A stretch of 64,000 nucleotides of DNA, taken from a virus. Taxonomy: Duplodnaviria; Caudoviricetes. This document shows, one piece after another, positions 4,022 to 47,865 of this stretch (position 1 is the first letter of the stretch; each line of letters opens with the position of its first letter). The translations under genes were made by a program, and so were the position numbers. The DNA lies in IMG/VR virus record IMGVR_UViG_3300021400_000130, positions 64,001 to 128,000 of that record; one strand, given 5' to 3'. Below the pieces are notes generated by a model. It saw only the letters and a program-made list of their open reading frames with translations. It was not told the DNA's origin and made no database searches.

Positions 4022-4558
4022 TTGATGCAAGACAATGATAATTATGGGTTGCTTGTTAATTCTAACACAACTCTTCATAGAAGATATTTCAATGAGATGG
4101 CTCGTCTTCTTGGAATAAAAGTTATCTATAGAGCTCCTACTCCCGGTAAACATTATACTACATATGCAGAAATAGAAAGTAATTATCAAGAACCAAAGTT
4201 AGAGTATTGCATCTTTGAAGATCATCCTTCACAACAAACATTAAAGAAACTTGGTTGGGTATCCGAATTACAAGAAGGAAGTTCTATCATTCATGTTAGA
4301 TACGACCTCGAGGATTTACAACAAGGAGCATTGTTTGTTGTACCAAGCGGACTTGATAAAACAAAAGGAAGGCTATTTAGAGTAATAAAGATTTCAAGTA
4401 TTATGGTCTTTCCTTCTTCTCTTTCATGCGAAATAGCTCCTGAGTATGAAGACACACTTGTTAAAACAACAATTGAAGATCACTCGAAGTCAAGTTTTAA
4501 TCTGTTAAACCAAGAAAAAGATGATATGTTTGAATATTATTCATTCAAAGAGGGCTAA
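4022..4558 (+). CDS. Head closure/neck protein (T4 gp14-like)
   Basis: Synteny between adaptor and tail terminator; size; beta-rich. Confidence 0.45.
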   Translation: MMQDNDNYGLLVNSNTTLHRRYFNEMARLLGIKVIYRAPTPGKHYTTYAEIESNYQEPKLEYCIFEDHPSQQTLKKLGWVSELQEGSSIIHVRYDLEDLQQGALFVVPSGLDKTKGRLFRVIKISSIMVFPSSLSCEIAPEYEDTLVKTTIEDHSKSSFNLLNQEKDDMFEYYSFKEG

Positions 4559-4561
4559 TAT

Positions 4562-5200
4562 ATGAGTGTATATTTATATGACGAAGCACTCGTAAGTAAA
4601 GTAAAATACTGGACTGAGAATACACAGTTACATGTTTACGGTGTAGATGAGATTAGAGATTTATTTCAAGTAATAGCCGATGAGAATGGTGACAAGCCAA
4701 TATCATTACCACTATTAACAATAAGTAGACCAAAAGGTTATTCGATAATAAACCCAAACAAGAAACCAACAACTTATAATGGAATAAGGGTTATACAAGG
4801 AGAAGACACAGCTTCGATGTTAGCTCAGATTCCAATTAACATTCAGTATCAATTTGATGTCATCTGTAGATATCAAAAAGAAGCTGATATGTATATGAGA
4901 AATCTTGTATTTAATATTATCAATTATCCAACATTAAAAATAGTAATACCTTATAGAGACATTAATTTTGAACATAATGGAACTATTAGATTAACTTCAG
5001 ATGTAATGGATACGTCAAATACTTCTGCTAAATTATTTAACGGACAGTTTACACGATTATCCGTTACAGTCAATATAGATGACGCTTATCTCTGGGATCT
5101 GCGTGTAGCAAACAATCTGTCTATTGAAGACTCAAATGTGCTATTTGTTAGAAATCCAGACGAAGTTACTTTTACTAAAGAAACAATTAACTTAGATTAA
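4562..5200 (+). CDS. Tail terminator / sheath stabiliser (gp15-like)
   Basis: Directly upstream of sheath; LPLLTISR...PINIQYQFDV pattern. Confidence 0.5.
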   Translation: MSVYLYDEALVSKVKYWTENTQLHVYGVDEIRDLFQVIADENGDKPISLPLLTISRPKGYSIINPNKKPTTYNGIRVIQGEDTASMLAQIPINIQYQFDVICRYQKEADMYMRNLVFNIINYPTLKIVIPYRDINFEHNGTIRLTSDVMDTSNTSAKLFNGQFTRLSVTVNIDDAYLWDLRVANNLSIEDSNVLFVRNPDEVTFTKETINLD

Positions 5201-5211
5201 GGAGACAATAA

Positions 5212-6552
5212 ATGGCACTCAGAATAAATATTTCTGAAAGAGATTTAACTCAATCTGTTGAAGCTCTTTCAAATACTGACATTGTTTTTATTCCTGGATT
5301 GTCTTCCGTGACAACCGTTGAGCAGTTCACTCCTATTACCTGTACAACACTTTCAGAGTTCATTACTACTTTCGGACCTTATCCCGTACTATTCAATTCT
5401 GCAATGGAGTACAGTGGTTTTGGTGAAGGTCACGGATTTGCAGAGGCCGCTATTCCAACTACTGGTAATCTATTTGATGCTGAATCTCCTGATCCTTCTT
5501 GGATTTATGCAGCAAAACTTTTATCTCAAGGCTTACAGGTAATCTATTGTAAGATTAATACTAATGCTCAGATTAATGCAAATGGTAAGTTTACTGGGAG
5601 CGTAACTGATCTTTACGGTCAGCTTGCTACATTATTTGCATCTACTTCTACAAATCTTACCAGCAAGGGAGATTTTGATTTCAAGTATCTGACCTCTGGT
5701 GGATATCCTGTCTTTGAATATGAAGGCAATAGCATCGTGATGGATATGTTAAATATCTGTGCCACAAGAGGAGACGCAGTAGCACTTATTGACCATACTG
5801 ACAATCCTGGTAGAGCACTAAATGCTTCGGATACAACTTCTGTTGTATATGCACTGAATAATACTTATGCTAATAGCTTTACTAACGGAGCTTACGCATC
5901 AATGTTTACTCCTTGGGGTATATATCCTCAGACAGTATACACCAACGATACTTATTCAACATTCCCACTTCCCGGATCTTTTGCATACCTCACATCTCTT
6001 GCACAGTCCTTACAAACTAACTACAACTGGGCAGTTGTTGCTGGTGTAAGTAGAGGTCTTGTACCTGGACTTATTGAGTTACACACAAATGAGGTGTTAA
6101 CAAATGCAATTGCTGATGCTTACCAGAACTTCGGTGTTGGTACATCTCTGAATGGTATCTATGTAAATGCTATTACTCGTATTAAGCCTTATGGATTCTG
6201 CATTTGGGGTAACAGAACACTCAGACAGAATGGTACATTAGGTCTACAAGCAATGTCGTATCTGAATCTTCGTAACTTAACTTGCGATGTTAAGAAACAG
6301 ATCTACACAGCTTGCATCAATCTGCTATACGAACAGAATACTGCTACTCTTTGGACTAACTTTAAGTCATACTTAACTCCTCTTCTTGACCAGATGGTTT
6401 CAGGAAGTGGTATTTCTGGATACAGAATCTTAAGAAATGCTTCTGACAGCCCAACAAAGATTAGTGCTTCTATTCGTATATATCCGATCTATGCTGTTGA
6501 GAGTTTTGACATTACAGTCTATATGACTGACGATGATGTCACAGTAGCATAA
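5212..6552 (+). CDS. Tail sheath protein
   Basis: Sheath C-terminal motifs AGVSRG, VNAI, IWGNRTL, YLNLRNL, PIYAVE. Confidence 0.9.
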   Translation: MALRINISERDLTQSVEALSNTDIVFIPGLSSVTTVEQFTPITCTTLSEFITTFGPYPVLFNSAMEYSGFGEGHGFAEAAIPTTGNLFDAESPDPSWIYAAKLLSQGLQVIYCKINTNAQINANGKFTGSVTDLYGQLATLFASTSTNLTSKGDFDFKYLTSGGYPVFEYEGNSIVMDMLNICATRGDAVALIDHTDNPGRALNASDTTSVVYALNNTYANSFTNGAYASMFTPWGIYPQTVYTNDTYSTFPLPGSFAYLTSLAQSLQTNYNWAVVAGVSRGLVPGLIELHTNEVLTNAIADAYQNFGVGTSLNGIYVNAITRIKPYGFCIWGNRTLRQNGTLGLQAMSYLNLRNLTCDVKKQIYTACINLLYEQNTATLWTNFKSYLTPLLDQMVSGSGISGYRILRNASDSPTKISASIRIYPIYAVESFDITVYMTDDDVTVA

Positions 6553-6574
6553 GGGATAAGGAGGATAAAATCAT

Positions 6575-7183
6575 ATGGCTATAAAATATAATCCCAGTAC
6601 AGTAGATATCTCTTCTAACTTTGCTATTGGCACATATAATCTAGCTGATAATCCTAACCTGTATGAAATAGCTCGTTCAAACAACTTCGAGTTTATCATT
6701 TCTGATTTTGATAATTTACAACCTGCAAGCAGCAATGACACTAACATGACAAAGCTGCAAAAAGGTCAAGAGATTATTAGAATGTCAGTAACTCGTACTT
6801 CTGTTCCTCACTTCTCACAAGAAGTCATTCGTGTTAGAAGAGGAAATAATGAACTTAAGTATGCTGGTGTTCCTTCCTTCGGAGAAGGTAGCCTAGTTGT
6901 CAACGACTATATTGGAGCTGGAACAAAAGATTACTTAATGGCATGGCAGAATCTTTCTTACAATGTTATCACTGAGAAGGTCGGTCTTGTTCAGGATTAC
7001 AAGAAGAACTGCACACTCATTGAGTACAGCCCAGATTACCAAGTGGTTAGAAGCTGGACACTTTATGGCTGCTGGATTAGCAATCTGTCAGAAGATGACT
7101 TTGATAGCGACAATGGAAACGCTCCAAGAAGAGTAACAGCTACTATTCAGTATGACCATGCTAAATTAGACGCTGACGTCTAA
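6575..7183 (+). CDS. Tail tube protein (gp19-like)
   Basis: Follows sheath; KYAGVP, WTLYGCWIS, ATIQYD motifs. Confidence 0.85.
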   Translation: MAIKYNPSTVDISSNFAIGTYNLADNPNLYEIARSNNFEFIISDFDNLQPASSNDTNMTKLQKGQEIIRMSVTRTSVPHFSQEVIRVRRGNNELKYAGVPSFGEGSLVVNDYIGAGTKDYLMAWQNLSYNVITEKVGLVQDYKKNCTLIEYSPDYQVVRSWTLYGCWISNLSEDDFDSDNGNAPRRVTATIQYDHAKLDADV

Positions 7184-7348
7184 TAAAAAGATATTGTATA
7201 GAATAATAGGGACAGTCATATCCTATTATGATTTCTAGAAATAGATTACCTATTTATTTTATATATCAAGATAACTAAAAAGTTGAATAGATAACATTTG
7301 AATTACTGATATATAAGATAAATTTACTTAAATTAAATATTATTTTAT

Positions 7349-8125
7349 ATGGAGAGTATTCAAATGAATCAAAAAGACTATACTATTAATCAAACATTTA
7401 CTCTACCTAGTGGTGGTAGAGTGTATAACGAATTGGTAGGCCCAGACATCACACTTCGTTCTATGACAACTCAGGAAGAGATGAAAAGATTGTCTCATTC
7501 TGATTCGCCATATAAGAACATCTGTGAAATTATTGACGACTGTATTGTATCTAACTGCAGTATTTCCAGTCGCGATATGTGTCTTGCGGACTACCGATTT
7601 TTACTTTATATGCTAAGAGTTGTTACTTATGGTAATAATTATAAACTTAGCACTACATGTCCTTACTGTGGTTGTGGAAATGTAGATACGATTGACTTGA
7701 CCAAACTTCCGATGAAAGAATATGACGAGAAAGAAGTTTCAAGTTGTCTTTCATTTGAACTTCCTATGACAAAGAGTAAGGTAGAAATTTATCTACAGAC
7801 CCCAAGAATGATTGACACAGCACAGTACAATGCAAAAGAGTATCGGAAGAAGACAGGACAGAATATTGATTATACAACAGTATTCACTATTCAAGAATTA
7901 CTAAAGAGTATTGATGGAGATCCTGTAAATCCTGTAAAGATTACGGACTGGGTAAAGAATCTTCCGATGGCAGATACAAATATGATTCTAAACTATGCGA
8001 ACAAAGCCAATACAGCTTTTGGAATAGATAATACTTTACATTGTATGTGTGATGTTTGTGGGCTTGACTATTTTGTCAACCTTCGTGCTGACAGAGAGTT
8101 TTTTCGACCCTCTTTGGATATCTGA
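7349..8125 (+). CDS. Tail/baseplate assembly chaperone (T4 gp26-like)
   Basis: FTLPSGG, LRSMTTQEE, CPYC and CDVC, C-terminal EFFRP; lies between tube and tape measure. Confidence 0.7.
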   Translation: MESIQMNQKDYTINQTFTLPSGGRVYNELVGPDITLRSMTTQEEMKRLSHSDSPYKNICEIIDDCIVSNCSISSRDMCLADYRFLLYMLRVVTYGNNYKLSTTCPYCGCGNVDTIDLTKLPMKEYDEKEVSSCLSFELPMTKSKVEIYLQTPRMIDTAQYNAKEYRKKTGQNIDYTTVFTIQELLKSIDGDPVNPVKITDWVKNLPMADTNMILNYANKANTAFGIDNTLHCMCDVCGLDYFVNLRADREFFRPSLDI

Positions 8126-8342
8126 AAAAGATAAGAAACTATATGCTCCTGTAAGGTTTAGAGATATAGTAAAGGAAAGATATTTGATATCCAAGAATAC
8201 ACATACTTCATATAATGATACAAAGGACATAACACCTACTGAAAGAGAAGTTCTGTTGCAGTTAATTGTTGAAGATTTACAACGGCAACAGGAATTGATT
8301 GAAAAGCAAAAACGAGAAGCCGCTATGAGGAATAAGAGATAG
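8103..8342 (+). CDS. Frameshift extension of the chaperone (G-T / gp51-like)
   Basis: Overlapping +1-frame ORF with no convincing start of its own; entered at TTT TTT CGA (8099-8107). Confidence 0.6.
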   Translation, partial: FDPLWISEKDKKLYAPVRFRDIVKERYLISKNTHTSYNDTKDITPTEREVLLQLIVEDLQRQQELIEKQKREAAMRNKR

Positions 8343-8361
8343 CGGATGGCAGGTGATATAA

Positions 8362-10992
8362 TTGGCATTTGATTTAGATGCTTTCTTTGAAGAATATAAT
8401 AATAGAAAACGAATAACAGCTGACAATCTTGCTTCCGAAGCCGCTTTAACTGCGGAGCTTGAAAAACAGGCTAAACACATGGATAGTTTGCAGAAAGCTG
8501 AAGTTGAAAGATCGCTCAGAGCTCGTCAAGCATATGCCCTTGCAACGATGACTCTTACGGAACAAGAAAAAGCTACAAGAAATAATATTAAGTTTCTTGA
8601 GGGAAAGAAAGAAGAGCTCGATCTACGAAAAAGGATGCTAGAACTGGCTCAAGAAGAGACAGAATCTGACGGTGAGAAACAAAGATTAGCTGAAGAAATA
8701 CAGGAAGTATATTCTGAGCAGTTAAAGAATCAAACATTACTTAATGGCTATAAAGAAAGAGAGATACAGTTACAGAGACACATTTCTAAAGGCCAAGAAG
8801 AAGGAGCAACTCTTACAGAAAGAATTGCAAATGCTCAGAAAAGATCGAATGGTTTTCTTGAAAAGCAGAAAGAAAATGAGAAATTACATCAACGTATTCT
8901 TAAAGAAAATCAGGCAATAATTGAGGACACCGCAAGCACAGAAGAAGAACGAGCAGCTGCTAGAGAGCGTATCGCTAGAGAGAAAACTGACTATAATTAT
9001 CGTTCGGAACAGAACGCGGCACAGTATGGTTTTGCTTCTGCAAAAGAAGCAAATAGGCAGAGTATACTTTCCTCATCGTCTGTTAAAGCAACGATACTCA
9101 ATAAGATCTTTGAAGTTGTCGGAAGTATTGAAAAGAAAGTTGGACAATCTATTTCCGAATCTGCAAACTTCCAGGCTCAGTATATGGGCAAAGTTGATGC
9201 TCGTTTACAGAGCGAAGAAGAACTAACAGGCTTCTTCAAACAACTAACCGATGATGTTCAGAAACAAGTAGGTGCTAACAGGTTTGTTTCTCAGAAAGAA
9301 GTTTTGACAAATATTGCAAGATTAACGGAACAAGGTGTTGCTTATAACTTAGAGCAAAGAGCATTATTAGCATCTCTTTCTGATAAGATGGTGACAACAT
9401 TTGATGTTCTTGATGACACGCTTCAAAGACTTATAAGAGTGCAACAGGCTGATCTTACAATGTCTCAACTAGGATCAGAAGCAAAGTTAACTAGATTCTT
9501 AAATAGTCAGTTTGAAGATACTTCTTTCTTAAACCAGATGTATGACAGCGTACTAGGAGCGTTAACGGATTCTATTGCTAGTATGGATAAGAATTCAGCA
9601 ACCTCTTTTACATATGCAGTTGAAAAGTGGTTGGGTTCTCTTTACAGTGTAGGTCTTTCAGATTCTGCAATACAAACAATCGCTTCTGGAATCAATGCTT
9701 TAGCAACTGGTAATGTAGCATCTCTTAGTAGTAATCAGCCATTATCTGTTTTGATGAATATGTCAGCGACAGGTGCGGGCTTGTCGTATTCAGATTTACT
9801 TACACAAGGTCTTAATGCTTCAAATGTAAATGATTTGATGCGTTCAATGGTAGACTATTTAAGTACTATTGCAGACAATACAACAGAGAACCAAGTTCTT
9901 CGTTCTCAATGGTCTGATGTTCTTGGTATAACTCTGACAGATCTAAGAGCTGCTAGTAATTTAACACAGAATGATATTTCTGCCATATATAATTCACAAA
10001 CAGATTATAGTAAGTCTGTTGAAGAAACAAGAAATCAGATGCAAACAGTTGTTGGTAGAACTCCTACTTCTGAACGTATTAAGAATATTTCTGATAACTT
10101 TATGTTTGACTGGGGTATGAATATCGCTCAGAATGGTGCTCAATATGTAACTTGGCAACTTTCTCAGATGGCTCAAGGATTGCTTGATTCCTTTGGTCTT
10201 GGTAACAGTATGGTAGGAAAGATTGTGAAGTTAGTTGCCGCAGTTCCTGCACTTGCAAGTTTATCTGAAACTCTTGGAGACATCTCTGAAGCTAACGGTA
10301 GTTTATTTGACTTCTCGTTTGACACAAGCGGAGGAGGAGTTCTCGGTATACTTGGTACCATTGGAAATCTTTTAACGCTTCCTTTCAATATATCTAATGC
10401 GATTTCTAGTTCCTTGGGAAGTGCATTAACAACAGGAATGGGAAGTAATCAAACATTAAAAGGCTTCTCTTGGGATGAGTTTACAATGAGGGGAACAGAT
10501 TACTCTCAAGGTATCGTGGGTGTAACAAGTCCTCATACATCATCTGCTTTTTCTAGTTATAATAGTGCACAAGAAGCTTATGACGGTGTTGTAATTACAG
10601 GAAGTACATTTGGAACAGAAGCTCCTGTTATAGAAGGAGTTAGCTCTAGTGCTTACTATACTACTACGGGAGCAACTAGTACAATCAATAATCTTGTTAC
10701 TAATGCAAACAATCTTGCAACTGCAGCCTCATCAATAAGCGGATTGACAGAAGAAATTACTAGTGGAGCGAATGAGATCTACAAAGAATTATTTGAAACA
10801 CAATCAACTCCAATAAGAGTAAAACTTGCAGAGTTAGAAACTTCTTCGTTCAATCAGTTAAATAATATTGTTGCTCAGTTAGATCCAGAAGGAGTTAAGT
10901 TGCTATTACAACAGATACAGTCAACAATACCAACCAATGAAAATAATGCAACATATATGATGCAGATGATGGATATGGTGAGGAGGTTATAA
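8362..10992 (+). CDS. Tape measure protein
   Basis: 876 aa, helical/coiled-coil with a Gly/Leu-rich hydrophobic segment; follows the chaperone pair. Confidence 0.75.
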   Translation: MAFDLDAFFEEYNNRKRITADNLASEAALTAELEKQAKHMDSLQKAEVERSLRARQAYALATMTLTEQEKATRNNIKFLEGKKEELDLRKRMLELAQEETESDGEKQRLAEEIQEVYSEQLKNQTLLNGYKEREIQLQRHISKGQEEGATLTERIANAQKRSNGFLEKQKENEKLHQRILKENQAIIEDTASTEEERAAARERIAREKTDYNYRSEQNAAQYGFASAKEANRQSILSSSSVKATILNKIFEVVGSIEKKVGQSISESANFQAQYMGKVDARLQSEEELTGFFKQLTDDVQKQVGANRFVSQKEVLTNIARLTEQGVAYNLEQRALLASLSDKMVTTFDVLDDTLQRLIRVQQADLTMSQLGSEAKLTRFLNSQFEDTSFLNQMYDSVLGALTDSIASMDKNSATSFTYAVEKWLGSLYSVGLSDSAIQTIASGINALATGNVASLSSNQPLSVLMNMSATGAGLSYSDLLTQGLNASNVNDLMRSMVDYLSTIADNTTENQVLRSQWSDVLGITLTDLRAASNLTQNDISAIYNSQTDYSKSVEETRNQMQTVVGRTPTSERIKNISDNFMFDWGMNIAQNGAQYVTWQLSQMAQGLLDSFGLGNSMVGKIVKLVAAVPALASLSETLGDISEANGSLFDFSFDTSGGGVLGILGTIGNLLTLPFNISNAISSSLGSALTTGMGSNQTLKGFSWDEFTMRGTDYSQGIVGVTSPHTSSAFSSYNSAQEAYDGVVITGSTFGTEAPVIEGVSSSAYYTTTGATSTINNLVTNANNLATAASSISGLTEEITSGANEIYKELFETQSTPIRVKLAELETSSFNQLNNIVAQLDPEGVKLLLQQIQSTIPTNENNATYMMQMMDMVRRL

Positions 10993-10995
10993 TAG

Positions 10996-12168
10996 ATGGC
11001 ACAGTATTTTTCAAACACTATAGAAAGTAAGTTTATAAAGAACCTTCTTTGTAATACTCCTCTCCCTACGTATGACACTGTTAGAGAAGGAGATTATATT
11101 CTTGCTCCTTTTACATATATAAATAGATGTGATATATTTAGATGTACTAAAAGTGGTATATTTACTGAAGATGCGGAAGTTGAAAGATTTAACCACTTTT
11201 CATTTGGTACATACTATCCTAAGTTTACAGAAAAGTTCATGTCAAATAATCTCTACTATGATGTAGATACCCATAAACAATTAGGACATTACTTAAGAAC
11301 TTATCGCGATTGTTTTAATATAGATCTAATGCCCTTTTATAATTGTTGGTGTAATGAGTATGTTTCAGGTTATTTTGTAACAGATAAAGGAGTAGTTGAA
11401 GGAGATAACTCACAGTATAAAGTTGCTATTGTACCTATTAAGTTCAATAAACAGTATACAATAGCAGCAGACTCAACTTCTCCTGTAATGATTGCTCCAA
11501 TATATCTTGAAAACAATCAGTTGATTCCTGCCTGGTCTGGTTCGGTGTCTTTTGATTTAACAAAAGATCTCTGTTCTAGAAATGGTTATAGTAACGTTCA
11601 TAGAGAATTATCTTGTTCTTTCAAACAACCATTTGTAGTAGAAGTTCAGAATCACGAAGGTGATTCTCATGCTGTTGTCCATCAGAGAAATGAAAGATAT
11701 CTTTACTTACTGATTCAATTTATGTCAACAGTAGACACTACATTGATTGTTCTAGAAGGGGATTACAGAAACCTTTCTTGCACCAAGATATATAATTCAG
11801 AAGAAAAACTTGATGTTGAACATGACGGAGTTGTAACCACTGAGAAAAATATTATTACTCCAAAAGAATGGGACGCTATGATGTTGAGTAATCTTGATTT
11901 ACTTCAGTTAAGTAGTAAAGAGCAGCGTCCATTTTCAAATAGATTAGTTGAATATCTCTTAGAGAATGTAATTACTTCTAGAGATGAAATTGCACTTGAT
12001 ATAAAGATTGCTCAAAGAAGTAGAATGGAACAATCTGGTATATGGAGTAACAATCTTAGAAGGTTACTCTACGAAAATTATTTACTGAGTAGACATACAA
12101 GAAAGATTGATATTACAGGGTATGTCGACAAAGATGTTGAAAATGCTATTATGAAAGGATACATGTAA
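10996..12168 (+). CDS. Hypothetical tail/baseplate protein
   Basis: Tightly coupled ORF in the tail operon. Confidence 0.5.
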   Translation: MAQYFSNTIESKFIKNLLCNTPLPTYDTVREGDYILAPFTYINRCDIFRCTKSGIFTEDAEVERFNHFSFGTYYPKFTEKFMSNNLYYDVDTHKQLGHYLRTYRDCFNIDLMPFYNCWCNEYVSGYFVTDKGVVEGDNSQYKVAIVPIKFNKQYTIAADSTSPVMIAPIYLENNQLIPAWSGSVSFDLTKDLCSRNGYSNVHRELSCSFKQPFVVEVQNHEGDSHAVVHQRNERYLYLLIQFMSTVDTTLIVLEGDYRNLSCTKIYNSEEKLDVEHDGVVTTEKNIITPKEWDAMMLSNLDLLQLSSKEQRPFSNRLVEYLLENVITSRDEIALDIKIAQRSRMEQSGIWSNNLRRLLYENYLLSRHTRKIDITGYVDKDVENAIMKGYM

Positions 12169-12170
12169 TA

Positions 12171-12824
12171 ATGGCAGTACCATTTAACAATCATTATAGT
12201 AGATATGTTATGCCAGATAACTATCTATATCTATATCATGTTCCCAATAATAGAGGAACGATGGGAGTATGTATATTACTTCCTGCATATGCAGATTCAG
12301 TTACTGATACACAGAATGTAAACTTTACTCCTTCAACTCCTCTTGCTCGTTCGGCTCCCATTTATTCATATGCAAGTTCTGGTCCTCGTTCGTTACAAGT
12401 GTCTTTCAATCTACACAGAGACATGATGAAACAGATTAATTATGGTGTTAGTACTGCTATGATAGAAAGTGAAAGTAATGATGATTATACAGATTTACTT
12501 ATCAAGTATATTCAAGCGGCTGCACTTCCTACATATGAAGTTGCTAAGAAGATGGTCAATCCTCCACAAGTAGCACTGAGATTAGGACAAGACTTGTTTA
12601 TAAAAGGAGTAATTTCTGGAGCTGTTGGTGTTACATATCGTTACCCTATGTTAAGTGATGGGAAGTATGCACTTGTTGATGTAGCTTTCAATGTAACAGA
12701 AACAGAACCTTATGATGCTTTAATAGCAGCTCAGATGGGTAGCTCAAGAGGTTTAAATACTTCTCTTGCAAGAAATCTGTATGTAGCAGCCCCGCCTTTT
12801 TCTACATATTCTAATATTTCTTAA
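12171..12824 (+). CDS. Tail tube initiator / baseplate protein
   Basis: RSAPIYSYASSGPRSLQVSF and VNPPQV motifs; position before the LysM-type gene. Confidence 0.55.
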   Translation: MAVPFNNHYSRYVMPDNYLYLYHVPNNRGTMGVCILLPAYADSVTDTQNVNFTPSTPLARSAPIYSYASSGPRSLQVSFNLHRDMMKQINYGVSTAMIESESNDDYTDLLIKYIQAAALPTYEVAKKMVNPPQVALRLGQDLFIKGVISGAVGVTYRYPMLSDGKYALVDVAFNVTETEPYDALIAAQMGSSRGLNTSLARNLYVAAPPFSTYSNIS

Positions 12825-12837
12825 GTGGTGATTAGAT

Positions 12838-13152
12838 ATGGATAAGTTAACAGATAAGACATACAAAACTTATAAAAGAGTTTCTAGATACAGTTCATTT
12901 CCGTATTATTATGATACTGTAAATAACAAATACATATACGGGACTCTAAATCATCTTGACCCTTCTACTCCTTATACTTCATATATAGTTAAGAAGAATG
13001 ATACACTTGATTCTATCTCTCTTGCTTTCTATAATACTCCTTTATACTTTTGGGTCATATGTGACTTCAATAAATTGAATGACCCGTTTGTTAAACTTGT
13101 TGAAGGTACATCAATCAATATACCTATTTTGTCAAGTATTGAGTTTCAGTAA
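12838..13152 (+). CDS. LysM-type baseplate wedge protein (gp53/gpX-like)
   Basis: YIVKKNDTLDSISLAFYNTPLYFWVICDFN...INIP. Confidence 0.8.
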   Translation: MDKLTDKTYKTYKRVSRYSSFPYYYDTVNNKYIYGTLNHLDPSTPYTSYIVKKNDTLDSISLAFYNTPLYFWVICDFNKLNDPFVKLVEGTSINIPILSSIEFQ

Positions 13153-13166
13153 GAAGGTAGATTAGT

Positions 13167-15863
13167 ATGATATATACTTCAGTTTATTCGGGTGACGGTG
13201 GAAGTGGTCGTTCAGGAGCTAGTGCTGTTACTACAACAAATCAAACAGTAGAGCAGAAAATATGGTCATTCTTTAAGGGTAAAGGATATACAGCAGCTGG
13301 CGTAGCTGGCGTGATGGGAAACTTTCAAGCAGAAAGTGGACTTAACCCTCAGAATGTTCAAGACGGTTTCGGCTGGTCAGATAGTGACTACACAAAAAAG
13401 GTAGACAATGGGTCATATTCAAAAGATCGGTTTATGAACGACCAGATGGGCTACGGACTAGCTCAATGGACTTGGTGGTCATTAAAACGCGATCTTTATG
13501 ACTTTGCAAAACATCGTGGCACTTCAATTGGCGATCTAGATACGCAACTTAATTTTGCATATAATACTATTAAAACAACTGGGTCGCTTGAAAGTATCTT
13601 AAAATCAACAAATGATGTTGGTGCGGCTTCTGATGCTGTTCTAACTCAATATGAAAAACCTGCTGTATACAACTACGATACTAGAAGGAATTTTTCTTAT
13701 AACTTTTACAATAAGTATAGTGGGTATACTGCTTCATATAGTGCCGCGGGCACTACTCCCGTGTATTCACAGCCAACAGCTACAGATAAAGCTATAGAAT
13801 GGGCTCTTGCTCAATGCGATAAAGGATACACCTATAGTATGCAGAATCGTTGGGGTCCAACTTCTTATGACTGTTCTGCTTTTATCATTACAGCGTGGAA
13901 GAAAGCAGGAGTTAGTACAGGAGCTTCATATACTGGAGACATGGCTCGGTACTTTACTAAACATGACTTTAAGAATGTTCCTAACCTTGTTAATATCATA
14001 ACAGGAGAAGGGTTAAGGGCAGGAGATGTACTTGTTTGGAATGCTCCTGGAACTTCTGGTGCTGGGGCAGACGGTCATACCTGTATGTATATTGGAGAGG
14101 GAAGAATTGTTGAGTGTACTCCTCTCGGTATAAAAACAAGAGATTATTATAGCACAAATGTACACGGAATGGCTGTTCATTGGCAGGACGTATTAAGATA
14201 TAAAGATCCCGCTACAGGCTATTCTTCTGGTGAAGAAGATACGAGTACAGAGTCCGCAGTTAAAGATGCTTTCTTGACAGGACTTTCTAACATAGGTAAT
14301 TCAATTTCTGGTGCAATAAATAATTGGAAAAACATTATTCCAAATATACTTACTCAGCAACAGTTCAACAACGATACTAATATGAATCGTCAATATGGTT
14401 CTTATGCGGAGTATGTTGCAGCTCAAAGAAAACTGAGAAGTGCCGGAGCGGTTGAAGAATCAGAAACGATAAGAAGAGTTACTATTGCAGAAACTCCTAC
14501 AAATATTTCTACACAAAGAACAACAGGCTTATTAAGTGCTGGAACATTTGTTGAGAGCCCATTTATCATTGTTAAGATCGGTGATTATACATTTGGTACA
14601 TATGGTTATAGAAAAACTGGAAATAGCGTTAGAGTAACTTATCCTAACTATATGGACAGTATAAATATAATAAAGATAAATGGAACTGTAAATCAGTACA
14701 CAATTAACATGACTTATCAAATCGAACAAGGACAAGATCCAAATCTACTTGATAAGATATTTAGTAGTGTTGGATATGGAACTATAAAGATAAGTTATGG
14801 TGATTATAGTTCTCCTTCCTTTATCTTTAGAGAAGAAGAAGCAATTATAACAAACTTAAATTCTTCAATAGATTTTTCAAACTCAAGAATTACTTACATA
14901 ATTTCATGTACTAGTAATGCTTTACAGTTAGCAGCAAGGTCATATAATTTTCCTGGTACAGTATGCAAGCCAAGTGACAAGATAATAGAAATATTGTTTT
15001 CTGAAAAGTATGGGCTAAGAGAACTGTTTACTGGGATGAAAAATAAAACAATTGCTAGAAGGCTGATTGCAGGAGACGATTGTCAGACTAAATTAGAGCC
15101 TAAAGAAGGAATGAGTCCTTTAAATTATCTTAACTATTTAGTTTCAGAGATGTCTTCTGCAGGAGAACAAGAAACTAGTATCGGTAAATCAACATATCAT
15201 CTAACAATTGTTGACGATATAACAAATGAATATAATGGACCATATTTCAAAGTTGTTAAAGTTACAGCTGATTGTACTGCGGAATCATTAAGTGGTTCTG
15301 ATGTGTATGAAGTTGATGTTGGATACTCAGGTTATGTAGGAGATACTCCTAGTAATTATGTTTTGGGGTTCCAAGTTGAAAACAATAACTCATGGGCTCT
15401 TTTGTATAAATATTCACAAGAAGTACCAACGGAAGATTATGTGTATAACATTGATAACAATGGTAATGTTACAACACAGTATTCTCCAAACGCTATGACT
15501 TCAAGTGTTCATCACAAGACGACACAAGCACAGAAGACTTGGTGGACTCAGATGACACAATTCCCTATTACAGCAAAATTAACTTTGAAAGGTTTATTAA
15601 GACCTGCAATGTTAATGAGCTATGTTAGAGTTAACGCTTTATTTTATGGTCAACGTCATATTTCTAGCGGATTGTATATAATAACAAAACAGCAGGATGT
15701 TGTTGATAGAAATGGTTATAGAACTACTCTTTCCTTAACAAGAGTTACTGGTGACAATAATCTAGTCTTTACAACTACAGAAGTAAAACCAGCTGTTGGA
15801 GGAAGTACTACACACTATTCAAGTAGTGGTAGAGAACATGGGGGCTCTAGTGGGAGCTTCTAA
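13167..15863 (+). CDS. Baseplate hub with N-terminal tail lysozyme and NlpC/P60 peptidase domains
   Basis: GVMGNFQAESG...GYGLAQWT (phage tail lysozyme); SYDCSAFI...GHTCMY (NlpC/P60 Cys/His); C-terminal SGLYIIT..GYRTTLSL hub signature. Confidence 0.8.
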   Translation: MIYTSVYSGDGGSGRSGASAVTTTNQTVEQKIWSFFKGKGYTAAGVAGVMGNFQAESGLNPQNVQDGFGWSDSDYTKKVDNGSYSKDRFMNDQMGYGLAQWTWWSLKRDLYDFAKHRGTSIGDLDTQLNFAYNTIKTTGSLESILKSTNDVGAASDAVLTQYEKPAVYNYDTRRNFSYNFYNKYSGYTASYSAAGTTPVYSQPTATDKAIEWALAQCDKGYTYSMQNRWGPTSYDCSAFIITAWKKAGVSTGASYTGDMARYFTKHDFKNVPNLVNIITGEGLRAGDVLVWNAPGTSGAGADGHTCMYIGEGRIVECTPLGIKTRDYYSTNVHGMAVHWQDVLRYKDPATGYSSGEEDTSTESAVKDAFLTGLSNIGNSISGAINNWKNIIPNILTQQQFNNDTNMNRQYGSYAEYVAAQRKLRSAGAVEESETIRRVTIAETPTNISTQRTTGLLSAGTFVESPFIIVKIGDYTFGTYGYRKTGNSVRVTYPNYMDSINIIKINGTVNQYTINMTYQIEQGQDPNLLDKIFSSVGYGTIKISYGDYSSPSFIFREEEAIITNLNSSIDFSNSRITYIISCTSNALQLAARSYNFPGTVCKPSDKIIEILFSEKYGLRELFTGMKNKTIARRLIAGDDCQTKLEPKEGMSPLNYLNYLVSEMSSAGEQETSIGKSTYHLTIVDDITNEYNGPYFKVVKVTADCTAESLSGSDVYEVDVGYSGYVGDTPSNYVLGFQVENNNSWALLYKYSQEVPTEDYVYNIDNNGNVTTQYSPNAMTSSVHHKTTQAQKTWWTQMTQFPITAKLTLKGLLRPAMLMSYVRVNALFYGQRHISSGLYIITKQQDVVDRNGYRTTLSLTRVTGDNNLVFTTTEVKPAVGGSTTHYSSSGREHGGSSGSF

Positions 15864-33673: not shown

Positions 33674-35353
33674 TTGATAACAATTGAGGAAAAATTAAAT
33701 AAGAAGATACCTGGTATATCTTCTTTATATATAAAGTTTGATTATAACAAAGACATTGTTGAAGCACTGAAAGAGAGCGTTACTGTTGGAGAGTTTGATA
33801 GAAAGACTTTAACATGGGAAGTTCCGGCTTCTGATCTAGCAAAGATTATCGACCGTCTTTCTGTTTTTGATTCTGTTGATCTTACTCTTCTTTCTGATGT
33901 TGAAGAAAAGAAACAAAAGGAACCAACACTTCATTCTTTCAAGACTAAACCTTTCCCTTATCAAGAAGAAGGAATAAAGTATGGTCTTCAGCATGATAAC
34001 TGGTTGTTACTTGATGCTCCTGGTCTTGGTAAAACTCTTCAGATGCTTTATCTTGCGCTTGAGTTGAAGAAGGCAGGAAAGATTGAGCACTGTTTGATTA
34101 TTTGTGGAGTAAATACACTTAAGTTTAACTGGAAGAAAGAAATTGAAAAGCATACAGACGAACAGTGCTATATTCTCGGACAGCGTATTAGTAAGAACGG
34201 AAAGTTTTCTATCGGAAGTGTTAGCGACAGAGTTAAAGACCTTAACAGTAAAATTAAAGAATTCTTTGTTGTAACCAACATTGAAACTTTACGAGATAAC
34301 GATGTTGTTAAAGGAATAAACAAAGGAGCAAATAAGTTTGATTTAGTTGTTGTTGATGAGGTACACAGATGTAAGAATCCACAATCACAACAAGGAAAGA
34401 ACTTTTTGAAACTTACAGGACCAAAATATAAAGTAGCTCTGACTGGAACTCTATTGTTAAATAGCCCACTTGATGCTTATGTTCCTCTTAAGTGGATTGG
34501 TAGAGAAAGATGCAGTTTCAGTAACTTCAAATATTATTATTGTAACTATACGGGATTTTTCAATAATGAGTTTATAGGTTATAGAAATATTGATACCTTG
34601 AAAGAACAACTTTCGAGCTGTTCTCTTCGTAGAACAAAAGATCTTCTTGACCTGCCACCTAAAACAATTATTCCAGAAATAATTGAAATGAATACAGCAC
34701 AGTCTACATTCTATTCAAATATTAAAGAAGGAATTGTTGCACAAGTCGATAAAGTTGATATGTCAACAGCAAGCATTCTGTCAATGGTTGCCAGACTAAG
34801 ACAGGCTACAGAGTGCCCTTCTGTTTTAACAACGGAGCCTATCAAATCAGAGAAAGTACTTAGAGCTATAGACTTAGTAGAACAAATTGTTTCTAATAAT
34901 GAGAAAGTTGTAGTATTTAGTACTTTCAAAGAAACACTTAATATATTGAAAGAAGAACTTAAGCAGTATAATCCTTTGCTGTGTACAGGCGATGTTAAAG
35001 ATTCTGAAATCAGTAACAATATAACAATGTTTCAGAATGATGATACTCATATGGTTATGCTTGCTACAACAAGTAAAATGGGTACGGGTGTTACTCTTAA
35101 CAGAGCAAGTCACGCAATTTTTGTTAGCAATCCGTGGACGGCAGCAGATTGTCAACAGTGTGAAGATAGAATACACCGTATTGGTTCAAAAGATCCTGTT
35201 TTTATTCATTATTTAATATGCAATGGAACAATAGATCAAAGAGTCGATGAGCTAGTTCACGATAAAGGTGCTATCAGTGATTATGTTATTGACGATAAGA
35301 TTGAAGAAAGATCTATTGACAGTCTGCGAAAATATATTTGTGAGCTAACTTAG
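33674..35353 (+). CDS. SNF2-family helicase
   Basis: DAPGLGKT, DEVH, LTGT, QCEDRIHRIG motifs. Confidence 0.9.
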   Translation: MITIEEKLNKKIPGISSLYIKFDYNKDIVEALKESVTVGEFDRKTLTWEVPASDLAKIIDRLSVFDSVDLTLLSDVEEKKQKEPTLHSFKTKPFPYQEEGIKYGLQHDNWLLLDAPGLGKTLQMLYLALELKKAGKIEHCLIICGVNTLKFNWKKEIEKHTDEQCYILGQRISKNGKFSIGSVSDRVKDLNSKIKEFFVVTNIETLRDNDVVKGINKGANKFDLVVVDEVHRCKNPQSQQGKNFLKLTGPKYKVALTGTLLLNSPLDAYVPLKWIGRERCSFSNFKYYYCNYTGFFNNEFIGYRNIDTLKEQLSSCSLRRTKDLLDLPPKTIIPEIIEMNTAQSTFYSNIKEGIVAQVDKVDMSTASILSMVARLRQATECPSVLTTEPIKSEKVLRAIDLVEQIVSNNEKVVVFSTFKETLNILKEELKQYNPLLCTGDVKDSEISNNITMFQNDDTHMVMLATTSKMGTGVTLNRASHAIFVSNPWTAADCQQCEDRIHRIGSKDPVFIHYLICNGTIDQRVDELVHDKGAISDYVIDDKIEERSIDSLRKYICELT

Positions 35354-39303: not shown

Positions 39304-40116
39304 GTGTTAGACGAATACAGACAAGCCTATACGCAGTCTGCTAACCAAATACCTGATTGGAAGAAAGTTAATCGTAATGAATTATGTAGAAGGTATAAAG
39401 AAGCAGAACGAGATGGTGAAACAGAATTACTGAGTTCCTATATAAGCGCTATTGTTCTAAACTTCTGGCATGTTTTGACAAAAACATATAACAAACAACC
39501 TGTTAAAGTATTGTCAGAAGAAGATTGTTATGAATGCTTGATTGAATCAATACTTTTTGTTTTAGGGCGGGCTGCTTGGGAAGATCCTACTCAGAGTATA
39601 TACAAAGATGAAAAAGGTCCAGAAAAAGCAATCAATCTAACTTTTCAACAGAGCATAACAAATCTTTTTGTCGCTGATCAAAGACATAAAAGGAAAGCTA
39701 TGAGCAATGCTTTGTCTCTTGATAATACACTGAAAGATGAAGAAGATTCACAAACATTTGTTTCTTTGTTAGCAAAGGATGAATTATCTCCTTTGCTAGA
39801 AAATCTGTTTTGGGGTAAAAAGATAAAACAATATTTTCAAAACAATGACTTTATTGCTGCATTTGTTCTAGATCTTTTAATCAAAGATCCTTCTTTGATT
39901 GAAAACAAAGATGAGAAGTATATTATCAATTCAAGAAAGATTGCAAAACAATTGAATGAACTTCCTGATAATTATGCTCGTGAGTTTTCAAAAGAGTACG
40001 GTATCTCTGTTGAAAAAGTTGAATCTGTTCTTAGTTATCTATATAATGTAAATAGTAGAAATATTGATAAGATATTATATCCTCTGATACAGGATATAAA
40101 GAAAGAGTGTGAGTAG
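39304..40116 (+). CDS. Hypothetical protein, possibly a divergent sigma-factor-like regulator
   Basis: Helical; RHKRKAMSNALSLD resembles sigma region 2-3 junctions; weak. Confidence 0.35.
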   Translation: MLDEYRQAYTQSANQIPDWKKVNRNELCRRYKEAERDGETELLSSYISAIVLNFWHVLTKTYNKQPVKVLSEEDCYECLIESILFVLGRAAWEDPTQSIYKDEKGPEKAINLTFQQSITNLFVADQRHKRKAMSNALSLDNTLKDEEDSQTFVSLLAKDELSPLLENLFWGKKIKQYFQNNDFIAAFVLDLLIKDPSLIENKDEKYIINSRKIAKQLNELPDNYAREFSKEYGISVEKVESVLSYLYNVNSRNIDKILYPLIQDIKKECE

Positions 40117-40833
40117 TTGATTACCAGTAATGATTGCTGGATGAAGGATACTTGTAAAAAATTCTTAAATCAGAGTAAAGAGTGTGAATGTAGAGATAAC
40201 GATGTGTTCTGCATAAAGTTGTTTAAGTTACAACAGCTTTATGACCTGTCTTTACTTACTGATAAACAGCGTATCCGTATTCCTCTAAGAATTGATGCAG
40301 ATGGGACAGATCGACAAGCGTTTGAGCGTTTAAGCGCTATAGAGTCTGACGGAGTTAAACATTTTGTAGATTCAGGAAGTAACTTATATATTTATTCTTC
40401 TAATGTGGGAAATGGAAAGACGACTTGGGCGATAAGACTTATACAGTCTTATCTAACAAATGTCTGGTATAAGTGTGACATTGATTGTAAAGCACTTTTT
40501 GTCAGTGTTCCTAAATACTTAATCTCAATAAAGGAGAATATTTCAGAACCAAGTGAGTATGCACAACATATTAAGAAGTATGTATACTCTGCAGATATAG
40601 TTGTGTTTGACGATATTGCAACAAAATCTGCAACAGCGTTTGAACACGAAATGCTTTTTAATATAATTGATGCTCGTGTTAATCTTGGTAAATCAAATAT
40701 TTTTACTTCTAATATGGATTATACAGGTCTTGTTAATACAGTTGGTGAGCGCATAGCAAGTAGAATTTTTAATACTTCGGAAAAAATTAGATTTGACGGA
40801 AAAGATAAAAGAGCTCTGGGGGTGAGTATTTGA
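40117..40833 (+). CDS. DnaC/IstB-like helicase loader ATPase
   Basis: VGNGKTT Walker A, VVFDD Walker B, IFTSN, RIASRI. Confidence 0.8.
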   Translation: MITSNDCWMKDTCKKFLNQSKECECRDNDVFCIKLFKLQQLYDLSLLTDKQRIRIPLRIDADGTDRQAFERLSAIESDGVKHFVDSGSNLYIYSSNVGNGKTTWAIRLIQSYLTNVWYKCDIDCKALFVSVPKYLISIKENISEPSEYAQHIKKYVYSADIVVFDDIATKSATAFEHEMLFNIIDARVNLGKSNIFTSNMDYTGLVNTVGERIASRIFNTSEKIRFDGKDKRALGVSI

Positions 40834-43992: not shown

Positions 43993-45603
43993 ATGTCCCT
44001 ATGGGGTGAAGATTTTGAAATAAAACCTGTCAAGAAGGAAGTTAAGAAAGTTACAACAAAAATTAACTCTCCAAAGAAGCCAAAGGTTGAAACTCAGAAA
44101 GTTATTAGCTCTAAGAGTGTTTCTGTATATGATAAACTACAGTTAATCTATGCAGAAGTAGACCGTATCCTTGGCAGGTATAAAGAGAATACTCAAGTTA
44201 TAAGGACAAAACAAGATCTTGTTGATTATATTGATGCCTCCATCAGTAATGGTGCAATTGCAATCGACACCGAGACCAACAATAGTCTTGATCCGATTAC
44301 TTGCCTTCTGATGGGGGCATGTATTTATACTCCCGGTAAAAAGAGCGCCTATATTCCCGTAAATCATGTAGATTATGTTTCTCATAATAAGTTAGAAAAT
44401 CAGCTTACAGAAGAAGAAATAAAAGAACAATTTGATAGGCTGAAAAATACTAAAATCATTATGCACAACGGCAAGTTTGACTATGAAGTTATCAAGTGCA
44501 CTTGTGGTTGTGTTTTAGATATATACTGGGATACAGAAATTGCAGCCCGTATCCTTGATGAGAATGAATTAGCAGCTCTAAAGAAACAGTACATACTACA
44601 TATTGATAGTACTCAAGAGAAGTACGATATTGAGCATTTATTCCAAGGTATTGAATACGAAGTTGTTGACCCTGATGTTTTCGCACTATATGCAGCTACT
44701 GATGCTCTAATTACATATCGGTTATATGAATGGCAGAAGGAACAATTCAGTAAGCCTGGAAATGAAAATCTTTATAGTGTGTTCATGAATGTTGAGATGC
44801 CAGTTGTTCAAGTTTCTGCAGAGATGGAACTTCTTGGTGTTGAAATTGACAAGGATTATGCGTCAAGATTAAGTACTAAATATCACAAGAAAGTTGAAGC
44901 AGTTGATAAAGAGATTGACGAAGAACTTTCTAAATATTCTGATAAGATTGCTGCATGGAGACAAACAAAAGAAGCTAATTATAAAGAGTTAAATTCTAAA
45001 CAAAATAAATCAGGAGAGTATACTTACAAGAAGTCAAAGAATGAACAACTTGCAGATCCTCCTCAGTTAAATAGCCCAACACAGTTAGCAATTTTGTTGT
45101 ATGATATATTACAAGTTCCTATACAAGATAAGAAAGCGCCAAGAGGAACAGGAGAAGAAATTCTCAAGAAAATAAATATTCCTCTTTGTGATCTTATTCT
45201 CAAGAAAAGAGGGCTTGAGAAGTTAATAGGAACATATATTGATAAGATTCCTGCTTGTGTAAGTCCGAAAGATAACAGACTTCATGCTCATTTCAATCAA
45301 CTAGGGGCAGGTACTGGACGATTTAGTTCTAGCGACCCTAATCTTCAAAATATCCCTTCAAAGAATAAAGAAATTAGATTGATGTTTAGAGCTGGGCATA
45401 CTGAACGAGAAGTTTCTAGTGAATATAACAGCTATACATTTAGTATGAATGAAGAAGTTCTTACGAGTACGGGTTGGAAAGCTGTTTCCGAACTAGTACC
45501 CAACGATGTACTTGTTTCTGATGAAGGAGAACAGGTTATTAGCACAGTAATGAAGATTGATAACTCTATTGTAGCATATGTTTCAGAGGAGGTGATTGAG
45601 TGA
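43993..45603 (+). CDS. polA: Family A DNA polymerase, N-terminal subunit (3'-5' exonuclease + thumb) ending in a Hint-like segment
   Basis: AIDTET, HNGKFD, YAATD exonuclease motifs; TGRFSSSDPNLQNIP; ends before motif A. Confidence 0.9.
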   Translation: MSLWGEDFEIKPVKKEVKKVTTKINSPKKPKVETQKVISSKSVSVYDKLQLIYAEVDRILGRYKENTQVIRTKQDLVDYIDASISNGAIAIDTETNNSLDPITCLLMGACIYTPGKKSAYIPVNHVDYVSHNKLENQLTEEEIKEQFDRLKNTKIIMHNGKFDYEVIKCTCGCVLDIYWDTEIAARILDENELAALKKQYILHIDSTQEKYDIEHLFQGIEYEVVDPDVFALYAATDALITYRLYEWQKEQFSKPGNENLYSVFMNVEMPVVQVSAEMELLGVEIDKDYASRLSTKYHKKVEAVDKEIDEELSKYSDKIAAWRQTKEANYKELNSKQNKSGEYTYKKSKNEQLADPPQLNSPTQLAILLYDILQVPIQDKKAPRGTGEEILKKINIPLCDLILKKRGLEKLIGTYIDKIPACVSPKDNRLHAHFNQLGAGTGRFSSSDPNLQNIPSKNKEIRLMFRAGHTEREVSSEYNSYTFSMNEEVLTSTGWKAVSELVPNDVLVSDEGEQVISTVMKIDNSIVAYVSEEVIE

Positions 45604-46685
45604 GTAAAGTCAAAGCCCGAAAGAAAAATATTTTTTGTGGAGCTGACTTTTCTTAGTCTCAACAAGAGCCTCGACTCTTGTCAGCTTATTCTCAAGATGA
45701 GAGAATGATAACTGCATATAAAGAAAATAAAGATTTATATGCAACTATTGCTTCTGGTGTATATAAGAATGATTACTGGGACAATATGGAGCATCATCAA
45801 GACGGGTCTCCTAATCCGGATGGTAAGAAAAGAAGAAGTAATTGTAAAAGTCTTCTATTAGGAATTATGTACGGAAGAGGCGCTCCCAGTATTGCGGAAC
45901 AGATACACTCTTCTGTTGAGGAAGCTCAGAAGATTATAAATGATTTTTATTCTCAGTTTCCAAAAGTGAAAGCGTGGACGGATAAAACAGAGCATGATGC
46001 TAAGGTTACAGGATATGTAGAAGACCTTTGGGGTAGAAGAAGAAGACTACCAGACATTCTTTTACCGAAGTATACAATAAAAACAAAACAAGCGTCTACA
46101 GAATTTAATCCGTTACTTTATACATTAGGAAAAGTAAATAACTCCTCACAAGATCTTGTTGAAAATTATAGGAAGAAACTTGACAAAGTAAGGTCAAGAA
46201 AAGATTATCAAACAATACAACAGGAAGCAGAAAAGAATGGTGTTACAATTGTAGACAACGGTGCTTTTATAAGTCAGGCTGAACGACAGTGTGTAAACGC
46301 TCGTATTCAGGGCGGAGCAGCTTCGATGACAAAAGTGTGCATGAGAAAGATTTTTGATGATAAAGAATTGAATGATCTACAGGCACACTTAGTATTACAG
46401 ATACATGATGAAGTAATTGTAGAGTGTCCCGAAGAAAATGCAGATAAAGTTATTGATAGGTTAACTTATGTAATGAAGAATTCCGTTACTGATAAAGTAA
46501 ATGTACCTTTCAAGTGTGACGGATACAAAGTAACAAGATGGTATGAAGATGACTTTGGAGATATTTTAAGAGAAAAATATCAAGCGTTGTTAGATGAAGG
46601 AAAAACAGAATCTCAAGCGTTTGATATTATGCTTGAAGAAAATAGCGAACTGACGAAAGAAGAGCTTTCTTCTTTCTTAAGTTGA
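45600..46685 (+). CDS. polA: Family A DNA polymerase, C-terminal subunit (motifs A-C) with an in-frame TAG at 45654-45656 that must be bypassed or removed
   Basis: GGAGGT RBS then GTG at 45600: MSKVKARKKNIFCGADFS*SQQEPRLL...; motif B RSNCKSLLLGIMYG; NARIQG; motif C QIHDE. Confidence 0.85.
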
Positions 46686-47100: not shown

Positions 47101-47865
47101 ATGATTGAAAAATTAAAAAGAGAATGGGAAGAAACAAAAGTACTTTTTAACTGTATGCCAACAATTCCGTTTGCATTTCTTGTTTGCTCTCTGATTGCAA
47201 TGAACTTTCTTGCAAATAGAGGAGGAGCTATTGGTCCTGTAGCATTTGATTGCGGTATTGTTGTTTCTTGGGTAGTGTTCCTTGCTTCTGACATGCTTGT
47301 TAAGAGGTTTGGTGCTAAAGCAGCAATTAAGATTAATATTGCAGCAATTATTCTTCAGTTAGTTTCAGTTGGTCTAATGACTCTTGGCGCAGTTATTCCT
47401 TGGGCAACTTATGGTTCTACTCCTGAAGAGTCTGCAGTATTTACTATGATTTTCAAAGCGGCTCCTTGGCCTCTGTTTGCTAGTGCAGGTGCTGCCCTGA
47501 TTTCAAATGTTATTAACTCTCTTATTTCTAAAGGCATTCTTTTGAGATTTAAAAATCGTACATCAGGTAAAGCGTATGTAACAGCCTCTTGGATTTCTAC
47601 TACTGCTGGTCAGTTCTTTGACAATTTCTTGTTTGGTCTGTTTTTCAGTATCTGGCAGCCTTGGTTCCCTTGTTACGGAACATGGAAGGCTATTCCAATG
47701 CTAATTCCAATGGCCTTTGTCGGTGCACTTCTTGAACTCCTGTGTCAAGTAATCTTCACTCCGGTAGGTTTTAAGATTGCTGAGACCTGGAGAAAGAAAG
47801 GTGTAGGACAAGAATACGTAGATATGGTAGCTGAAGCTCAAGAAGTAAATACAAATCTTGCCTAA
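47101..47865 (+). CDS. Queuosine-precursor (preQ0/preQ1) transporter, VUT/YhhQ family
   Basis: Multi-TM protein with MNFLANR, FLASDMLVKRFG, ISTTAGQFFDNFLF motifs. Confidence 0.75.
   Translation: MIEKLKREWEETKVLFNCMPTIPFAFLVCSLIAMNFLANRGGAIGPVAFDCGIVVSWVVFLASDMLVKRFGAKAAIKINIAAIILQLVSVGLMTLGAVIPWATYGSTPEESAVFTMIFKAAPWPLFASAGAALISNVINSLISKGILLRFKNRTSGKAYVTASWISTTAGQFFDNFLFGLFFSIWQPWFPCYGTWKAIPMLIPMAFVGALLELLCQVIFTPVGFKIAETWRKKGVGQEYVDMVAEAQEVNTNLA

Follow-up and report, generated by a model that had tools for sequence, protein, structure and literature searches.

How can a phage make its DNA polymerase when a stop codon stands inside the enzyme's most conserved motif? The question is raised by a family A DNA polymerase gene (polA) in a 64,000-nucleotide (nt) window of IMG/VR virus record IMGVR_UViG_3300021400_000130. 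The record is a complete 153.6-kb gut phage genome with terminal repeats, of which the window is bases 64001–128000; the window has 35% G+C, carries its genes all on one strand and reads cleanly by code 11. The polymerase spans 43993–46685 in three collinear coding stretches, and its catalytic motif A is broken by TCT-TAG-TCT. We consider it likely that ribosomes cross this break by a Ser-to-Ser hop over the stop, in analogy to T4 gene 60/MobA with a far shorter gap. Comparison with related genes supports the hop as the only single mechanism that would fit the data, covering all gap classes and always giving DFSQQEP. The features used below are as follows, in positions of the window.

43993–45603, plus strand: open reading frame (ORF) A, 536 amino acids (aa), covering 3'-5' exonuclease, thumb and the initial palm region (to IRLMFRAG), then a C-terminal extension; ends in TGA.
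45397–45600, plus strand: C-terminal extension of ORF-A, 68 aa (HTERE...EEVIE), not in uninterrupted relatives.
45588–45596, plus strand: Shine-Dalgarno (SD) sequence of ORF-B, GGAGGTGAT; a near-identical sequence stands before the leader in every relative.
45600–45653, plus strand: ORF-B segment 1, with GTG start, basic N-terminal extension SKVKARKK, palm strand NIFCGA and the motif A residues Asp-Phe-Ser.
45640–45660, plus strand: weak local inverted repeat at the take-off codon (GACT 45645–48 / AGTC 45655–58; predicted -4.7 kcal/mol).
45651–45653, plus strand: take-off codon TCT (Ser of DFS), assigned from the sequence layout.
45654–45656, plus strand: TAG stop, which makes up all of the coding gap from take-off to landing codon, likewise from the layout.
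45657–45659, plus strand: landing codon TCT, immediately before CAA, where decoding would resume, likewise from the layout.
45660–46685, plus strand: ORF-B segment 2, with QQEPR (the rest of motif A), motif B KSLLLGIMYG, motif C QIHDE and TGA end; Pfam DNA_pol_A positions 160–381.

ORF-A matches Pfam DNA_pol_A_exo1 and positions 19–159 of DNA_pol_A, and its TGA stop (45601–45603) is overlapped by the GTG of ORF-B at 45600 (GTGA). After this GTG, ORF-B reads MSKVKARKKNIFCGADFS, then TCT-TAG-TCT (45651–45659), then QQEPR, so that its frame is VSKVKARKKNIFCGADFS-TAG-SQQEPRLL; the codons at the break are GAC 45645, TTT 45648, TCT 45651, TAG 45654, TCT 45657, CAA 45660, CAA 45663 and GAG 45666. The SD, start, frame and TCT-TAG-TCT had been reported in an initial annotation made by a model from the letters, and every coordinate proved correct on re-reading, as did its remark that the program-listed ORF from TTG 45678 is without the motif A Asp. 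Segment 1 of ORF-B is homologous to EGNVFAGADFS of uninterrupted alleles. Compared with these alleles, the window polA has two lesions: an insertion between MFRAG and NIFCGADFS, which ended one ORF and started another, and a run of six additional bases that separates the motif A codons for Ser and Gln. The annotation had also argued that a 6-nt skip gives DFSQQEPR; uninterrupted relatives read ...GADFSQQEPR, so exactly 6 nt are extra.

The unbroken form, IR.MF....G.h.hGxD[FY]SQQEPR, occurs in Streptococcus phage MS1, Clostridium phage phiCTP1 and many IMG/VR contigs, and the residue before QQE is Ser in 46/46 distinct uninterrupted alleles. One relative, L015 (L numbers denote relatives of this polA), is split without having the gap; it reads ...MVLVGSDFSQQEPR and thus displays the product expected of a hop. 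A megablast search of the window polA against GenBank phages gave no match.

The break also occurs outside the window. A pattern scan of IMG/VR, in which the pattern required a take-off Ser codon and a stop, yielded 37 distinct junctions in polymerases, from independent assemblies and of one design; they share ancestry, so the counts given here are not counts of independent events. Each has a strong SD and start codon of its own, a leader of 17–19 codons with a basic N-terminus, then a hydrophobic strand ending in D[FY]S, and after it a stop, a gap and a landing triplet. The stop follows the take-off codon in all 37, as the pattern required (TAG in 27, TAA in six, TGA in four). From the take-off codon to the triplet directly 5' of CAR-CAR-GAR-CC, the gap measures 1–13 nt; 14 junctions keep the frame across it, 18 are shifted by +1 and five by +2, and eight of the 36 other junctions have a 3-nt gap like the window's. 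The nearest relatives (L001, L007, L008 and L014) show the same split with GAC TTC TCG TAG TTG CAG CAG, and more distant ones read TCT TGAG TCA, TCG TGAGT TCG or TCT TAGT TCC. A freer scan with the GAACC form of GACTWYN{3,20}TCNCARYARGARCC admitted any 3–20 nt between D[FY] and SQQE; among the matches listed, every true polymerase insert began with a Ser codon and a stop. The pattern scan of genome contigs gave 97 matches, four of them polymerases (L179, L194, L223 and L234) and the rest chance; host assignment from the metagenome-assembled genome bins in that scan is unreliable. L079 (2440–2480) has a different irregularity: a little upstream of motif A, after LFGATK and before GYILMSSDFS, its frame is broken by one base, which reflects a sequencing error or else a +1 site.

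The initial annotation had asked whether inserts in related polA genes always open with a stop, vary in length and end in a matching Ser codon. The first two points hold, the stop being required by the pattern and the gap ranging as above. The third holds in part: the landing triplet is of Ser type in 33/37 junctions (UCN in 32, AGU in one) and a near-cognate non-Ser triplet in the other four. These four are UUG, GCG and CCG after UCG, and GCU after UCC, each still able to form two of the three base pairs with the anticodon used at take-off. The position before QQE is thus non-Ser in 4/37 gap alleles versus 0/46 uninterrupted ones (Fisher p = 0.036), a tolerance that fits a codon which is paired but not decoded. 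In the single allele with an AGU take-off codon, L248, the landing triplet is also AGU and overlaps the stop. When metagenomes were scanned for further alleles taking off from AGY, 59 chance matches and no polymerase came up, so this AGU/AGU covariation is that of one allele. The longer gaps contain purine-rich, SD-like runs ahead of the landing codon.

While the layout, its conservation and its variation can be read off directly, we infer the hop itself and its efficiency. The polymerase would derive from two genes that owe their separation to a homing-endonuclease-type cassette, with ORF-B using its own SD and GTG. Seventeen codons into ORF-B, peptidyl-tRNA-Ser would stand on UCU 45651 with UAG in the A site. 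In a fraction of ribosomes termination would not occur; instead codon-anticodon pairing would be released, the mRNA moved by 6 nt and the same tRNA re-paired with UCU 45657, with decoding restarting at CAA. Nine nucleotides would then encode one Ser, motif A would be restored as DFSQQEPR, and the junction tryptic peptide of the product would be NIFCGADFSQQEPR. The annotation's proposal of a UCU-to-UCU hop over UAG yielding DFSQQEPR gains support from the gaps in three frame relations, the constant stop, the Ser-type landing triplets and the lack of any in-frame start codon from the stop to the landing triplet in 32/37 junctions, the window included. As the annotation also suggested, such a hop might hold down replicase output.

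Plain readthrough would have a near-cognate tRNA decode UAG and would leave a two-residue insertion in motif A, DFS-X-S-QQEPR. An in-frame gap, as in the window and in 14/37 junctions, would permit this. The gap is out of frame in the other 23, and because gaps occur in all three frame relations readthrough is excluded as a general mechanism. L129 and L141 have a further stop within the gap, in the frame that would need reading, which in L141 makes a second in-frame stop. Readthrough would also insert one to five residues into the most conserved motif, where none is seen in 46/46 plain alleles. The phage has 18 tRNA genes, clustered at 4417–15725 of genome G000 C1 (outside the window), with no suppressor among them, and TAG is not recoded in its genome. 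We therefore hold readthrough to be improbable. Single +1 or +2 frameshifts would need three different mechanisms and add one to five variable residues to an invariant motif. The sole Ser tRNA of the cluster has anticodon GCU, so UCN take-off and landing codons would need a host tRNA.

General recoding of TAG in this phage was ruled out: only this TAG breaks a real gene, TAG ends two genes, and there is no suppressor tRNA. These two genes (33674–35353 and 39304–40116) are the only real ones in the window to end in TAG, and right after the TAG of the second, without a change of frame, comes the TTG of a DnaC-like ORF (40117–40833). Some relatives do read TAG as Gln (L009/L124, L025/L106 and L054), their in-frame polA TAGs aligning to Gln in 8/9 cases, and their gap stop is TAA or TGA, not TAG. 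This choice fits the hop; coming from one lineage only, it is suggestive at best.

A second alternative is true termination, with release of an 18-aa peptide and a C-terminal piece started at or near the landing codon, either as part of a three-piece enzyme or by re-initiation. Phages are known to have split enzymes whose pieces assemble (PMC2677866), and an in-frame GTG, TTG or ATG does lie beside the landing codon in L010, L105/L108, L123 and L129. It lies there only in these; the window and the rest of the 32 junctions have no start codon at that place. The 18-aa peptide would moreover have to supply the strand with the catalytic Asp in trans. Directly after the gap, QQEP[RK] is conserved with synonymous variation, which indicates that it is translated, though most alleles have no start there. 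On these grounds, termination is an unlikely account of the family.

The third alternative takes the break for a tolerated selfish lesion: the polymerase would be inactive or nearly so, and replication would be done by a host enzyme recruited via the phage clamp and clamp loader. In its favour, genes for a DnaB-type helicase, a DnaC-like loader and a primase are present in the phage, and alleles that carry the cassette exist alongside close relatives that do not. The pattern of substitution speaks against it. Among gap alleles, the ratio of nonsynonymous to synonymous substitution rates (dN/dS) of the C-terminal part is 0.08–0.10 where dS is not saturated, and changes in the leader strand region are synonymous or conservative. 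As the initial annotation had stressed, the remaining polymerase motifs are intact: motifs B and C are present in the window and kept in 29/29 gap alleles having enough sequence. A quick maximum-likelihood tree contains one clade that mixes gap and uninterrupted alleles, where the starred branches force at least five changes, and one diverged clade of 18 polymerases that consists of gap alleles exclusively. No other DNA polymerase of family A, B or C (alpha) was found in the complete 153.6-kb genome. Both coding sides of polA are under strong purifying selection and the gene is alive, and we give a dead polymerase little credence.

Removal of the insert from the RNA, by a micro-intron or another form of excision and ligation, seems very unlikely. 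In one register the insert does end in G after a U, and true group I introns occupy the same site in relatives: insertions of 244 nt to ~1.1 kb lie exactly between the motif A Ser and Gln codons in L026 (2258–2500) and L038 (about 1400–2500). They have a group I-style P1, in which the exon sequence ACTTCAGT faces the guide GCTGAAGT, and they score below the Rfam gathering threshold. Introns at this Ser/Gln junction mark the site as a homing hot spot. The inserts under discussion are 4–16 nt long and without conserved ends, and no mechanism is known to excise RNA of such sizes in bacteria or phages. An Rfam search of 44800–46200 at E up to 10 returned no group I ribozyme and only chance matches (such as mycoplasma_FSE, E 0.24), and the same search recovers a true intron of L001 at 76.5 bits. 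With inserts as short as 4–5 nt in the family and real introns at the site so much longer, the 6-nt micro-intron offered by the initial annotation as its alternative is rejected. An assembly or sequencing error in the contig can be practically dismissed, since an exact 6-nt insertion would have had to recreate the design of 36 other distinct junctions. Elsewhere in relatives' polA, group I introns (Rfam RF00028; 76.5, 65.2 and 56.7 bits) lie at L001 1060–1335 and at L054 1161–1431 and 2708–3016; their insertion points are NL|QN and another one around residue 547, and the window is without either.

Several points weigh against a hop, beyond the shared ancestry of the junctions. At this locus the hop is deduced from sequence, and as the window's gap is in frame, this allele taken by itself also fits readthrough to DFS-X-S-QQE; re-initiation is possible in L010, L105/L108, L123 and L129. 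In L029 (2440–2520) the gap lies two codons later (DFSQQ | TAG CTCTT | EPR), and its take-off and landing triplets are unmatched. Short stop-hops in Escherichia coli constructs were reportedly inefficient (Weiss et al. 1987). Non-programmed hops of the stop-hop type have likewise been called low in efficiency (PMC5009743).

Local structure at take-off is suggestive, with moderate support. In most alleles the region of the Asp codon (GAC, often GTGACT) can fold with the end of the gap and the first landing bases (GTC, AGTCAC), and in L115, L120, L131 and L141, among others, a longer gap is complementary to the take-off region of the same allele. In 33/37 junctions a hairpin with 4 bp or more is predicted to fold around the take-off codon, and the mean energy is -5.17 versus -3.03 for random gaps (z -5.8), the sequences being related. 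Two results count against such a structure: the allele-swap control for covariation was not significant (81/1000), and the window's longer stem (45640–47/45680–87) is no better than shuffles (z -1.19) and not conserved. The basic leader (MKKSIRVRK-type), the candidate for a nascent-peptide signal, is conserved but present also in the gap-less L015.

Why would a gap exist at all? Between ORF-A and the leader, relatives carry genes for GIY-YIG, HNH_3 or LAGLIDADG endonucleases, which have been lost in the window and about ten other relatives. The cassette adds a C-terminal extension to ORF-A and an N-terminal one to ORF-B. A comparison of L004 (uninterrupted) with L007 (cassette) places its boundary at the gap: identity between the two is 97.3% in exon 1, 95.7% in the C-terminal part, only ~80% in a short coding stretch within the cassette region, and perfect (60/60) from the first base after the gap. 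The gap probably owes its existence to the cassette, which splits the gene 17 codons upstream, a link absent from the initial annotation. The LAGLIDADG ORF of L001 (1641–2675) contains an in-frame TAA and that of L007 (2856–3944) is intact, which resembles the nuclease decay described for MobA.

In T4, the 50-nt insert of gene 60 protects the element's DNA from MobA, outlasts loss of the nuclease and has been lost while the split remains (10.1101/2022.08.31.505936). The polA family shows the same life history, from which a self-immunity role for the gap may be drawn. By this analogy with T4 MobA/gene 60, the insert would exist to break the target site of endonucleases, or of intron endonucleases, that home to this spot.

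The 68-aa tail of ORF-A is weakly conserved among split relatives (a GW.....L..GD pattern), and a Pfam search of it at E up to 10 found no family, Hint or intein included. An intein or split intein was rejected, there being no Hint match, no N-terminal nucleophile (HTERE follows MFRAG) and no His-Asn in the leader. The tail (45397–45600) does show an intein-N-like pattern (..GWK....EL...D.L).

The closest parallel is T4 gene 60/MobA. In both, an essential replication enzyme is split at its catalytic metal-binding site by an endonuclease cassette, the first ORF gains a C-terminal and the second an N-terminal extension, and soon after the start of the second ORF a take-off codon and a stop are followed by a matched landing codon. 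There is tentative hairpin potential at take-off, and the SD-like purine runs of the longer polA gaps are a further likeness. Their histories agree too: the endonuclease is lost while the gap stays, the gap is lost while the split stays (L015), and the nuclease family is swapped. The two differ in that T4 has a topoisomerase gene as host, a gap of ~50 nt and a Gly GGA take-off codon at codon 46, whereas the polA family has motif A of polA, a gap of 1–13 nt, a Ser UCN take-off codon at codon 17–19 and GIY-YIG, LAGLIDADG or HNH_3 nucleases. Its hosts are probably Firmicutes, and unlike T4 it is known from sequence only. With host gene, gap, take-off codon and nucleases all different, the window polA is an analogue of the T4 system and not a member of it.

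Other systems share parts of the design. Synthetic stop-hops in E. coli (reviewed in PMC5009743) have exactly the window's TCT-TAG-TCT layout, with 9 nt for one residue; those are laboratory constructs, whereas the polA layout is natural, conserved and in an essential gene. The mitochondrial byps of Magnusiomyces capitatus (PMC5009743) are also short mobile inserts in essential genes that ribosomes skip, some with imperfectly matched landing codons. They differ in being 27–55 nt long, GC-rich and mitochondrial, with an unused sense codon in the A site and no link to an endonuclease cassette. Phage genes split or fractured by homing endonuclease genes (PMC2677866; Aeh1 nrdA, T4-like gp43) likewise have a free-standing endonuclease between the halves of a replication gene and an element that supplies the overlapping stop and start. 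They are without an extra stop-containing gap in the second half, and no functional split intein is recognisable in the window polA.

The established cases of programmed bypassing are T4 gene 60 with its homologues and a single lineage of yeast mitochondria. A 2016 review knew of no natural in-frame stop hopping (PMC5009743), a 2022 preprint on MobA stated that there was no report of a similar bypass from other phages (10.1101/2022.08.31.505936), and our full-text literature searches turned up no account of a stop-hop in a polymerase. On balance we think it probable that these junctions represent the first natural family of very short (1–13 nt) programmed stop-hops, in which ordinary gut-bacterial ribosomes would routinely jump from Ser to Ser over a stop to make the phage's only DNA polymerase, and in which the gap would be carried by, and protect, a homing-endonuclease cassette. 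If so, dozens of natural variants in gap length, stop and landing codon within a 60-nt context would form a minimal, tractable system for asking what makes ribosomes hop, and bypassing would have been recruited more than once by homing-endonuclease cassettes. It would also account for a recurrent annotation failure, in which phage polymerases are called broken or without a catalytic Asp. Downstream of the polymerase, the window carries a gene for a YhhQ/Vut_1 family transporter (47101–47865; Pfam E 1.6e-19).

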